Virus record (IMG/VR): IMGVR_UViG_3300040759_000032
Coordinates: 1-64,000 of that record
DNA length: 64,000 nucleotides
From: a virus
Reading direction: 5' to 3' (one strand)
Made by a program: the position numbers and the translations under genes. Positions 3,939 through 5,802 of the stretch are shown here, one piece after another (positions within the stretch are counted from its first letter, which is position 1; every line of letters starts with the position of its first letter). Below the pieces are notes generated by a model. The model made no database searches. It was not told the origin of the DNA and was given only the letters and a program-made list of their open reading frames with translations.

Positions 3939-4210
3939 CCGTCGTCCCCGCGCTCGTGGGTCGGACATGTCCCCTGAGAGGGGGCGGCTTGCGCTACACC
4001 CGTCGTCCCCGCGCTCGTGGGTCGGACGCCATCGAGCTCGCCGAAGAACTCGATGAACTGCCGTCGTCCCCGCGCTCGTGGGTCGGACCCGCGCGCTTCG
4101 CGGTACCCGGCGATGTCACGCCCGTCGTCCCCGCGCTCGTGGGTCGGACATCCCCAGGCCACCCGGGTGATTGAGACGTTCCCCGTCGTCCCCGCGCTCG
4201 TGGGTCGGAC
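3939..4210 (-). CRISPR. CRISPR mini-array: 5 identical 28-bp repeats, 4 unique 33-bp spacers (type I-E-like 61-bp period)
   Basis: CCGTCGTCCCCGCGCTCGTGGGTCGGAC at 3939, 4000, 4061, 4122 and 4183. Strand inferred from the leader-like sequence on the right side. Confidence 0.97.
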
Positions 4211-4248
4211 TCTTCCCGACCTGCGCGTTTTCCTGCGCGATTCCGCTA
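4211..4248 (-). promoter_or_regulatory. Putative CRISPR leader
   Basis: Minus strand reads AAAACGCGCAGGTCGGGAAGA directly into the first repeat, resembling the GCAGGTC-containing ends of actinobacterial type I-E leaders. Confidence 0.55.
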
Positions 4249-4450
4249 TTGAGTTAGGCTGCCCGTTCGGGCGTGTGGGGGACGCCCGGCAGTTGCCCGC
4301 CGGGACTGCCAGTCTCAGCCAGCCCGGGGGCTGGTGCTGGCTTCCCGTTTCAACGGCGGCTGCCCGTCACCGCGAGCGGCGCCAGGTCTTACGTCACCTC
4401 CACGGGCGTTTAGCGTCTCCCCGGTACTCGGGGCGACGGTCACGGCTACA
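4249..4450 (-). ncRNA. Putative omega-RNA/tracr-like scaffold overlapping the 3' end of the tnpB-like gene (5' boundary uncertain)
   Basis: CCCGGCGG-GCAA-CTGCCGGG GNRA hairpin (4304-4285), GCCC-GAAC-GGGC hairpin (4272-4261), ends at TCAA (4252-4249). TnpB omega-RNAs typically overlap the gene's 3' end. Confidence 0.5.
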
Positions 4451-5802
4451 CGGGCGCGGAGTGCGAGCGCGCGGGCCGTGTTGACCCGGCGCGGCATGAC
4501 GCTCCCGCAGGCCTCGCAGGCGAACAGCTCGTCGGCGGGCGGGACCGGCTTGGCTTTCGCCGTCCCGCACGCCGAGCATGTCCGCCCGGTCGGCGCGTGC
4601 TTGTCCATCACGAGCACCTGGCATCCGTACCAGGCGCCCTTGCTCTGCAGCTGCCACCGGGCGATCCCGATCCCGGTGTCGGCCAGCGCCCGGTTCCGGT
4701 CCGCGCGGACCCTCACCGGGACGCTTCCCGCTTTCTCCTTCTTCCTCGGGTCGGCCTTGCCGGCCCGCCGGTAGCGGGCGGTCTCCTGCACGTCGAACCC
4801 CTCGACCGCGATCACGGCGCGCGAGTGGACGAGCCCGCTGGTCGCCTTGTGCAGCGAGTCGAGGCGCAGGTGCCGCACCCGGGCGTGCAGCCTGCCGACC
4901 CGGGCGGCCGCCTTCCGCCGCCGCGCCGAGTCCTTCTCGCAGCGGGACAGGGCCCGCTGCGCCTCCGCCAGCTTCCCGAGCGCCCCTTCCAGGTGGCGCG
5001 GGTTCGCGATCGCGGTCCCGTCGGACAGGGTGGCGATGTCGCGGACCCCGAAGTCGGCGCCGGCGATGCCGCCCGCCCGCTGCCGCCCCGACGGGCCGGT
5101 GCGGACCTCCCGCCGCACCTCGGCGGTGATCGCGATGTGCCAGAGGCCGTCGGACTCGCGGGCGACGGTGCCGCGCACGATCCGCGCCGTCCCGGCGTCC
5201 ACCCGCCGGCGGAGCTTGCGGGCGGACTCATGGAGGAACACCGGGCCGATCTTCGGCAGGACGACCATGTCGCGGGTCGCGCCCTTGTCCGCGCCCTTCG
5301 GCCGGAACCCGGCGCCCGCGCTCTCGACCCGCAGCGTCTGCCCGTGAACCTGGAAGGAGTCCCTGGCCTTGCCGCGCTTCTTGAACCTCGGCCGGCCGAG
5401 GCGCCTGCCTTTCCGCTCGCCCTTCGCCGACTTGAAGAAGTCCGACCACGCTTTCGCCGCGTCCCGCAGGGCCGCCTGGTAGGAGCCGACGAAGTTCTCC
5501 GACACCCAGGCGGTGTTCGTGCGGCGCTGGCCCTCGGCGGGCTCAGGGTCGGCGGCGTGCTCGTCTTTCCAGGCGGTCCACTGCTTGCACAGGTCGAAGT
5601 GGGAGGGGACCTTCGTGTTCGCCTCGCCGCCCGCGGCCTTCTCCGCCTCGCGGGCGTCGAGGGCGGCGATGATGCGGGCGTTGCCCCAGTTGTAGGCGAA
5701 TCGGGAGGCCCCCGCGTGCGAGCGGAGCATCCGCTCCTGCGCGGGCGTCGGGTCGAGGGCGAACCGGTACGCCTGCTGGATCGTCTGGACTTCTACCGGC
5801 AT
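4315..5802 (-). CDS. tnpB: TnpB-family (IS605 OrfB-like) RNA-guided protein, predicted nuclease-dead, CRISPR-adjacent; 495 aa
   Basis: N-terminal QAYRFALDPTPAQERMLRSHAGASRFAYNW; GRPRFKK; RuvC-I GADFG; RuvC-II IAVEG; Zn finger CSAC...CEAC; RuvC-III reads PRRVNTA instead of DRDxNAA. Confidence 0.92.
   Translation of the reverse strand: MPVEVQTIQQAYRFALDPTPAQERMLRSHAGASRFAYNWGNARIIAALDAREAEKAAGGEANTKVPSHFDLCKQWTAWKDEHAADPEPAEGQRRTNTAWVSENFVGSYQAALRDAAKAWSDFFKSAKGERKGRRLGRPRFKKRGKARDSFQVHGQTLRVESAGAGFRPKGADKGATRDMVVLPKIGPVFLHESARKLRRRVDAGTARIVRGTVARESDGLWHIAITAEVRREVRTGPSGRQRAGGIAGADFGVRDIATLSDGTAIANPRHLEGALGKLAEAQRALSRCEKDSARRRKAAARVGRLHARVRHLRLDSLHKATSGLVHSRAVIAVEGFDVQETARYRRAGKADPRKKEKAGSVPVRVRADRNRALADTGIGIARWQLQSKGAWYGCQVLVMDKHAPTGRTCSACGTAKAKPVPPADELFACEACGSVMPRRVNTARALALRARVAVTVAPSTGETLNARGGDVRPGAARGDGQPPLKREASTSPRAG

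Follow-up and report, generated by a model that had tools for sequence, protein, structure and literature searches.

A phage-borne Cas12n-like effector with an altered RuvC-III site and a type I-E-derived CRISPR array: a probable RNA-guided DNA-binding module

Cas12n, the effector of the type V-N (formerly V-U4/C2c9) CRISPR systems, is described as a monomeric TnpB-like protein of actinobacteria, with a trans-activating CRISPR RNA (tracrRNA) region overlapping the end of the open reading frame (ORF), no adaptation genes and a 5'-AAN protospacer-adjacent motif (PAM) (PMC12216341). C2c9 is reported to use the same PAM as the type I systems found alongside it, and shared adaptation has been proposed (10.1101/2024.04.09.587696). 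A locus that resembles these systems is present in the first 64 kb (hereafter, the window) of the 132,427-bp IMG/VR virus record IMGVR_UViG_3300040759_000032 (71% G+C). Like the loci of RdCas12n and AcCas12n, it combines a small TnpB-like single effector, with RuvC and zinc-finger motifs, and a downstream array, with no cas1 or cas2. The differences are that the window effector is phage-borne and that the third catalytic residue is Arg, whereas Cas12n has a D-E-D triad (D287, E386, D484) and cuts double-stranded DNA. Comparison with relatives indicates that the locus is probably a phage-borne module of the Cas12n kind that lacks adaptation genes of its own and most likely binds rather than cuts its targets.

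In TldRs, the guide is a single fixed omegaRNA that targets a host promoter, and there is linkage to the gene under regulation, whereas the window contains a turning-over multi-spacer array, with spacers that differ in every locus of the family. The likeness to TldR lies in the descent from TnpB, the damaged RuvC site and the proposed action by binding (bioRxiv 10.1101/2023.11.30.569447). DNA binding without cutting, as proposed here for the window effector, is also a property of the small type V effectors Cas12m (type V-M) and Cas12k, with Cas12m blocking transcription or replication (cited in PMC12216341 and PMC10691335). Both are distant from the window effector (profile E-values of 1.6e-11 and 8e-8 to Cas12m structures), differ from it in the repeats and the PAM and have no type I-E-derived array. 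Cas12r of the Thermus Lalka phages is likewise a TnpB-like effector of phages with a short array behind it; the repeats are reported to share elements with the host type I-E repeat, its spacers are 32–33 nt long, and gene-proximal spacer entry, a proposed adaptation by the host type I-E system and a PAM overlapping AAG are described (bioRxiv 10.64898/2026.04.20.719267). However, according to the same source, Cas12r belongs to another TnpB branch, comes from thermophiles, uses a CRISPR RNA only, without a tracrRNA, and has an active RuvC that is required for interference (abolished by D238A); it is an independent, nuclease-active parallel. With the IS607-family TnpB and its omegaRNA (the Transposase-2 RNA of Rfam), the window has in common the stems P1–P3, a long-range guide-adjacent helix, which in the window is predicted, and the ...ACGG tail, but IS607 elements contain tnpA, occur in several copies, take their single guide from the flank and retain DRDxNAA in RuvC-III. 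With no tnpA, one gene copy and an array at the guide position, the window locus does not look like a mobile IS607/IS605 element.

The module occupies positions 3939–5802 of the window and consists of the following features.

4315..5802, minus strand: effector gene, TnpB/Cas12n-like, 495 aa (Pfam, structure-profile alignment, ratio of nonsynonymous to synonymous substitution rates, dN/dS)
5053-5055, minus strand: codon of RuvC-I D250 (GADFG), aligned to the RdCas12n Asp
4801-4803, minus strand: codon of RuvC-II E334 (IAVEG), aligned to the RdCas12n Glu
4486-4488, minus strand: codon of R439, which replaces the RuvC-III Asp (aligned to RdCas12n chain 9j09)
4281..4351, minus strand: omegaRNA/tracr-like scaffold core with stems P1–P3 (Rfam RF03015, covariation)
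4278..4284, minus strand: anti-repeat CGTCCCC, the complement of GGGGACG in the 3' part of each repeat
4211..4277, minus strand: small hairpin (GCCC/GGGC), then the type I-E leader remnant, which ends CGCGCAGGTCGGGAAGA and abuts the first repeat
3939..4210, minus strand: CRISPR array on the gene's strand, five identical 28-nt repeats and four unique 33-nt spacers
4183-4210, 4122-4149, 4061-4088, 4000-4027 and 3939-3966, minus strand: repeats, with a period of 61
4150-4182, 4089-4121, 4028-4060 and 3967-3999, minus strand: spacers, 33 nt each

The effector contains the Pfam domains HTH_OrfB_IS605, OrfB_IS605 and Cas12f1-like_TNB, and its best NCBIfam model is IS607_TnpB (287 bits, under the cut-off of the model). 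The frame remains open upstream of the ATG, yet 493-aa homologues cover 100% of the query from the chosen start. A gap of 104 nt separates the stop codon (4315–4317) from the end of the nearest repeat, at 4210. An earlier reading of these letters (hereafter, the sequence-only reading) had described a 495-aa TnpB with GADFG, IAVEG, a zinc finger and PRRVNTA, followed at this distance by five identical 28-nt repeats with four 33-nt spacers, and this description holds by the ORF, Pfam, the alignment with RdCas12n and the coordinates. It had also seen no tnpA, cas1, cas2, cas6 or Cascade genes in the window, and none was found even in the complete 132,427-bp record: Cas1, Cas2 of the I-E type, Cas6e, Cas7e and Cse1 gave no match (Cas3, Cse2 and Cas5 were not searched), nor did a serine recombinase/resolvase or a Y1 transposase. 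The sensitivity of these profile scans is uncertain, since the type I-E Pfam control matches in Thermus only; the better test for Cas1 and Cas2, tblastn with the actinobacterial proteins, also shows no match in the record.

The RuvC-III motif of the effector is altered. The zinc-finger cysteines are C409, C412, C429 and C432, and the PRRVNTA motif follows at 437–443, with P437-R438-R439 placed on D-R-D of MDRDLNAA in RdCas12n (9j09), so that R439 falls on the catalytic Asp, as the sequence-only reading had supposed. In the alignment of the query with its 120 closest database homologues (121 proteins), the motif contains Arg-Arg in 117 proteins and Arg-Asp in 4, and none of the 121 lacks D250 or E334; the motif begins with Asp in 83 proteins and with Pro, as in the window effector, in 33. 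A 39-sequence alignment shows no variation at R438, R439, N441 and A443. The Asp-to-Arg change characterises the whole clade and not just the window's copy. Within RuvC, the alignment contains no invariant acidic residue in place of the lost Asp. As a compensating residue, the E+3 Asp (VEGFD) was considered and rejected because it is not invariant (Asp in 102, Asn in 18 and Ser in 1 of the 121 proteins).

The effector gene is under purifying selection. Its dN/dS is 0.20–0.35 against relatives of at least 73% identity, and no premature stops occur in any of the 11 effector genes compared (11/11 intact), so the gene is not decaying; the relaxed selection that the sequence-only reading had proposed to look for is not seen. 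The gene is present in one copy in the record (tblastn), and wherever Arg-Arg genes were counted there is a single copy, in contrast to the canonical IS607 relatives, which have several. That the Arg-Arg effectors have lost ordinary double-strand cutting is plausible and the more likely reading. The effectors of several relatives (L011, L012, L015 and L016; here and below, L numbers are loci) have in-frame insertions of ~60–130 aa near residue 200.

The best solved relative of the effector and of its family profile is 9j09/9udi, that is, RdCas12n (9J09/9UDI; Fu et al. 2025, PMC12216341). The score is 151 bits with RdCas12n compared with 112 bits with ISDra2 TnpB, whereas an IS607 TnpB control, L117, ranks the two oppositely (147 bits with RdCas12n and 183–198 bits with ISDra2 TnpB). 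The locus L082 from an actinomycete genome has the canonical D.D.NAA motif, a six-repeat array and the same leader end as the window, and its effector scores 272 bits with RdCas12n; next to these 272 bits, the 151 bits of the window effector mark it as a divergent sister of Cas12n. Relationships within the family were examined in an IQ-TREE phylogeny of 53 proteins (LG+G4, support by the Shimodaira–Hasegawa-like approximate likelihood ratio test only, midpoint root, no named Cas12n sequences; the partial L014, L017 and L083, the L013 duplicates, L125 and L129, which have internal stops, and five truncated loci were left out). In this tree, L079 and L082 are sister to the Arg-Arg clade, and the joint clade of 14 rows (support 93) comprises 11 array-bearing rows, 2 with a solitary repeat and 1 without an array. 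The scaffold-leader-array layout is also present in the L082 sister branch, which has an intact catalytic triad, so the array association predates the Asp-to-Arg change. By these comparisons, the effector appears to belong with Cas12n (type V-N) and not to be a fresh recruitment; the independent TnpB-to-type-V transition envisaged in the sequence-only reading has to be given up, given the grouping with Cas12n and a sister branch that already has the layout. No description of the Arg-Arg Cas12n-like group was found in the literature, although one may be contained in the supplements to PMC10691335 and the Cas12n papers.

The linkage between gene and array recurs across this family. Relatives were obtained by scanning sequence collections and genomes, and an array of at least two repeats on the gene's strand is found in ten Arg-Arg lineages (the window, L008, L010, L011, L012, L014, L015, L016, L086 and L087). 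The arrays of the relatives contain 2 to 17 repeats with a 61-nt period, behind the same scaffold, and the array-bearing Arg-Arg relatives span 55–92% protein identity to the window effector (92% for L008); with the sister branch included, the linkage spans 35% to 92%. Elsewhere, the L009 contig ends after a single repeat, one isolated repeat-like 28-mer is seen in the L013 lineage, and L077 is an Arg-Arg gene that has downstream DNA and no array. No arrays were found at ~40 canonical IS607-type TnpBs on viral contigs (31–40% identity, DRDxNAA), and in the genomes of the order of G262, 1 of 58 matched, with no new loci. The effector and the array form one conserved unit and not a chance neighbourhood. 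The sequence-only reading had proposed to check whether the RuvC-III substitution and the array co-occur: ten Arg-Arg lineages have arrays, and so does the canonical-triad L082.

Among the more distant relatives, L088–L130, which are IMG/VR contigs, many of them from one sample, carry canonical IS607 elements two or three times per viral contig. These elements consist of tnpA, tnpB and an omegaRNA ending ...ACAACGG, with differing right flanks, which suggests active transposition inside large phage genomes. No transposon-adjacent motif emerged from the flanks at the left ends of the IS607 relatives.

The array derives from type I-E. In the canonical cas1-cas2-leader-array locus L156, the repeat frame is GTCCG-CCCCGC-GCCA-GCGGGG-ATGAGCCC, and its leader, between cas2 and the array, ends CGCAGGTCAGCAAGT directly before GTCCG.... 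The leader end of the window, CGCAGGTCGGGAAGA, is the same and is kept in all array-bearing relatives, which shows that the direction of the array is that of the gene. Degenerate repeats lie at the gene-distal end in L011, L014, L086 and L087, which places the growth of the array next to the gene. The window array thus has the period of 61 and the leader end and repeat frame of type I-E, but not the intact six-pair hairpin (the Cas6e substrate) or linked cas genes. The six-pair stem retains 4 pairs in the window and 3 to 6 over the ten linked arrays, compared with 6/6 in all nine cas-type genome arrays. Pairs are lost without compensation in 8 of the 10 linked arrays, with a perfect hairpin retained in L009 and L015; the 3' half of the repeat is conserved across the linked arrays. 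The type I-E hairpin of the linked arrays is eroding.

On the 154-kb viral contig L087, past the distal end of the array (4610–6482), lie a Cas1 fragment, a Cas2 fragment and a tyrosine integrase. The N-terminal Cas1 fragment is 49% identical over 88 aa to the L156 Cas1 (E 6e-28; only 16 bits with Pfam), and the C-terminal fragment of a type I-E Cas2 matches PF09707 with 27.2 bits, over the cut-off; together, they look like one deleted cas1-cas2 pair. The type I-E-like character assigned to the repeat in the sequence-only reading is borne out by these remnants and by the leader end and repeat frame of L156.

No copy of the repeat was found in the 132-kb record beyond the array, and the exact 28-mer has 0 matches in the genome contig collection. 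The 32 genome matches to the 3' half of the repeat were rejected as same-orientation arrays: by their register (7-6-4-6-5), they are mostly the reverse complement of the 5' end of their own repeats, and they were used only as hairpin controls, with no bearing on orientation. The junction motif gave 33 matches in 401 Actinomycetes genomes, compared with ~30 for the reversed control, so that these are mostly chance; the only real arrays among them are L138 (the same place as L082) and L156. The 17-repeat array of L012 (4835–5840) has a strongly diverged repeat (GTGCAGCCCCTGGGCACGTGGGCGACGG) and spacers that mostly begin with A or T, not G, which may point to another acquisition motif or to a displaced boundary of the repeat.

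Between the gene and the array lies a scaffold that matches the Rfam family RF03015 (Transposase-2 RNA) with 60.4 bits, compared with a gathering score of 42.7. Its core overlaps the last 37 nt of the effector gene, a further 70 nt separate its end from the first repeat, and the stems P1–P3 covary across 14 loci. The helix between the anti-repeat CGTCCCC and GGGGACG of the repeat is predicted de novo by the minimum free energy fold of 4351–4183 (z -2.2) and also by RNAalifold on the 14 loci, and 89.8% of the alignment cells pair, compared with ~52% with slid partners. Changes on both sides of the helix are seen in L012 (A-U) and L086 (U-A), with wobble-compatible single changes elsewhere. L082 and L079 are misaligned by one column in this alignment; the L082 helix looks compensated by eye in the +1 register (CATCCTCCAC with GTGGGGGATG). 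The anti-repeat pairing appears well supported as complementarity, with covariation that is suggestive only.

The comparison with mobile relatives indicates what the helix may represent. In the multi-copy IS607 relatives, the omegaRNA contains, in this order, P1–P3, the 5' helix strand, an internal hairpin, the 3' helix strand and the tail AACGG; it ends ...CATCTAC-AACGG, and beyond this tail, at the guide position, the copies diverge. The order in the window is P1–P3, CGTCCCC, the small hairpin, ~50 nt of leader, the 3' part of the repeat (GGGGACG-ACGG) and the spacer, so that the boundary between ...GGGGACG-ACGG and the spacer falls where the IS607 omegaRNA tail meets the guide. In the array-less relatives L077 and L078, the omegaRNA tails are GGGGATGACGG and GAGGGACGACTG, respectively, and resemble the 3' handle of the type I-E repeat; such a handle-like tail may explain why a TnpB lineage could adopt type I-E repeats. 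L011 has a 115-nt insertion within the P2 region of the scaffold (L011:4716-4830).

The spacers turn over among the loci. None of the 59 spacers over all loci matches another locus; 51 of them are 33 nt long and 38 begin with G. No matches were found in the record itself, in the other loci or in the PLSDB plasmids (repeat-to-repeat only), and two spacers scanned exactly against IMG/VR gave 0 matches. In GenBank phages, the only match, at 31/34 positions in Xylella phage Paz (E 0.02), is taken as chance. When the contigs of four peat metagenome runs were compared with the locus, a 151-nt contig of run X4, a different peat metagenome, was found to match the spacer 4028–4060 at 32/33 positions with flanks that are not repeats, i.e. 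outside any array. Oriented like the spacer, the flank is ...GGTGAA, followed by the C with which the spacer begins, and is of the AAN type. A second, weaker protospacer matches the spacer 4089–4121 at 30/33 positions, with the flank GA/G. Run X5, from another peat sample, contains a variant of window 4232–4271 that differs by three substitutions and lacks 2 nt at 4235; this leader and scaffold stretch of the cassette is therefore polymorphic in nature. All 24 listed sequencing runs are DNA metagenomes.

The genomic context is that of a large phage of high-GC soil bacteria. Portal, tape-measure and minor tail proteins are encoded in the other half of the record (PHROGs), which identifies it as a tailed phage. 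Two pairs of neighbouring genes flank the module.

3206-3762, minus strand: two small genes of the helix-turn-helix (HTH) type HTH_17/MerR, after the array in the window
6197-8721, minus strand: hydrolase similar to glycoside hydrolase family 26 (GH26) and family-2 glycosyltransferase, just upstream of the cassette

In the window, the HTH pair lies 3' of the array, but in L008, L016 and L017 it precedes the effector gene, so one of the two must have moved, the HTH pair or the cassette of gene and array. The IS607 TnpA of relatives begins with a similar HTH, and the window genes could be excisionases or tnpA remnants. The GH26-like gene is syntenic in L006/L007/L013, L008, L010 and L011, and together with the glycosyltransferase it looks like a surface-glycan module of the phage family.

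A mechanism can be proposed in which the TnpB-derived effector is encoded just ahead of its own scaffold, an apparent omegaRNA remnant that overlaps the 3' end of the gene and seems to be joined to a leader and repeats that come from a captured array of type I-E. Transcription would pass from the gene into the array, and the last dozen bases of the repeat (GGGGACG plus ACGG) would pair with the scaffold anti-repeat, which would rebuild the guide-adjacent stem of the TnpB omegaRNA, with the spacer in place of the guide. New spacers probably enter at the gene-proximal end through the host type I-E Cas1–Cas2, which fits the 61-nt period, the retained leader end and the AAN-type flank. Most likely, the complex attaches to matching DNA in rival mobile elements and obstructs it, with no double-strand cut of the usual kind, although an altered or residual nuclease or RNA-processing activity may persist. 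It seems reasonable to regard the effector as an RNA-guided binder or repressor. A more far-reaching version, which can be put forward as a serious but tentative possibility, is that the Arg-Arg group forms a natural 'dead' Cas12n clade of phage-borne binders of 490–510 aa, which would have lost cutting by a single Asp-to-Arg change and would have their spacer library renewed by the host type I-E Cas1–Cas2. The repeats of such a clade would drift off the Cas6e hairpin, so that the phage guides serve the phage's own effector and not the host Cascade, and rival phages, plasmids or host genes would be silenced without DNA breaks.

Several observations weigh against binding by a dedicated gene-array module. 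The covariation of the anti-repeat helix alone is not significant, with only 2 both-side cells, a number reached by 82 of 500 shuffles, and the observed percentage paired is reached by 34 of 500. The difference between cognate and non-cognate pairs in RNAduplex is weak and noisy (-36.0 compared with -32.7 kcal/mol), and a second proposed helix (AR2, between the scaffold end and the 5' end of the repeat) pairs in 70.5% of cells, with a varying register. No targets were found in the phage, plasmid and viral collections searched, and the PAM evidence consists of the one good protospacer and the one poor protospacer (30/33, GA/G). Given the synteny of the GH26-like neighbour, the conservation is in part explained by common descent inside a single phage family, and the conserved gene-array linkage could partly be plain vertical descent. 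The relatives with a perfect hairpin, L009 and L015, could feed the host Cascade. Finally, the strict conservation of RRxNTA, D250 and E334 could signify a working rearranged active site, not a dead one.

This last point underlies an alternative in which the module is the same but the nuclease works: Arg-for-Asp would be a rearrangement of the catalytic site, and the effector would cut DNA or at least process its own RNA, like other Cas12n. That is unlikely, though far from negligible. The invariance of D250 and E334 and of R438, R439, N441 and A443 fits it, as does the purifying selection, and several RuvC-III-altered TnpB branches have been inferred to be active from conservation (Altae-Tran et al. 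2023, PMC10691335). The alignment, however, offers no invariant acidic substitute, the E+3 Asp being Asn in 18 of the 121 proteins; the Arg-Arg genes are single-copy where the canonical IS607 relatives are multi-copy; and, according to PMC10530073, RuvC-II rearrangements are the only ones with experimentally shown activity. An assignment of the Arg clade to the experimentally validated 'rearranged catalytic site' group was dropped for the latter reason. A still less probable explanation takes the array for a phage mini-array that serves the host type I-E Cascade in trans, beside a TnpB-like gene that is kept there by shared descent and has a separate function or none. The type I-E geometry and leader end, the cas1/cas2 remnants in L087, the perfect hairpin in L009 and L015 and the partly kept flanking synteny agree with such a role. 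It is at odds with the uncompensated erosion of the hairpin in 8 of 10 linked arrays, compared with intact stems in the nine cas-type arrays, and with the 3' part of the repeat staying complementary to the scaffold, including two compensated changes. The spacer, moreover, lies at the omegaRNA guide position, the linkage persists from 35% to 92% protein identity, and Cas12n relatives are described as using such arrays (PMC12216341). The sequence-only reading had held out an incidental adjacency to an array read by the host; the incidental part fails on the ten lineages with arrays, and the host Cascade as a second use of the array is weakened only. Very improbable is an IS607-type tnpB element inserted beside, or homing into, type I-E arrays, with the repeat itself as the omegaRNA guide. 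It would account for the nearest mobile relatives being IS607 elements with a serine-recombinase tnpA and for the scaffold abutting leader DNA directly, but there is no tnpA, no second copy and no repeats upstream of the gene, the anti-repeat pairing puts the repeat in the scaffold and not in the guide, and the same junction is seen across deep divergence with differing spacers.

Should the nuclease work, the window effector would be a divergent but ordinary Cas12n. Should the Arg-Arg clade bind without cutting, it would add to Cas12k, Cas12m and TldR another natural path by which a type V nuclease became an RNA-guided silencer, and a phage-borne binder of less than 500 aa with an A-rich PAM would be an attractive compact programmable tool. 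The locus displays, at the level of sequence, how a TnpB omegaRNA joins a foreign type I-E leader and array, with the 3' end of the repeat apparently substituting for the guide-adjacent strand of the omegaRNA; this bears on the origins of type V systems and on how systems without adaptation genes may go on acquiring spacers.

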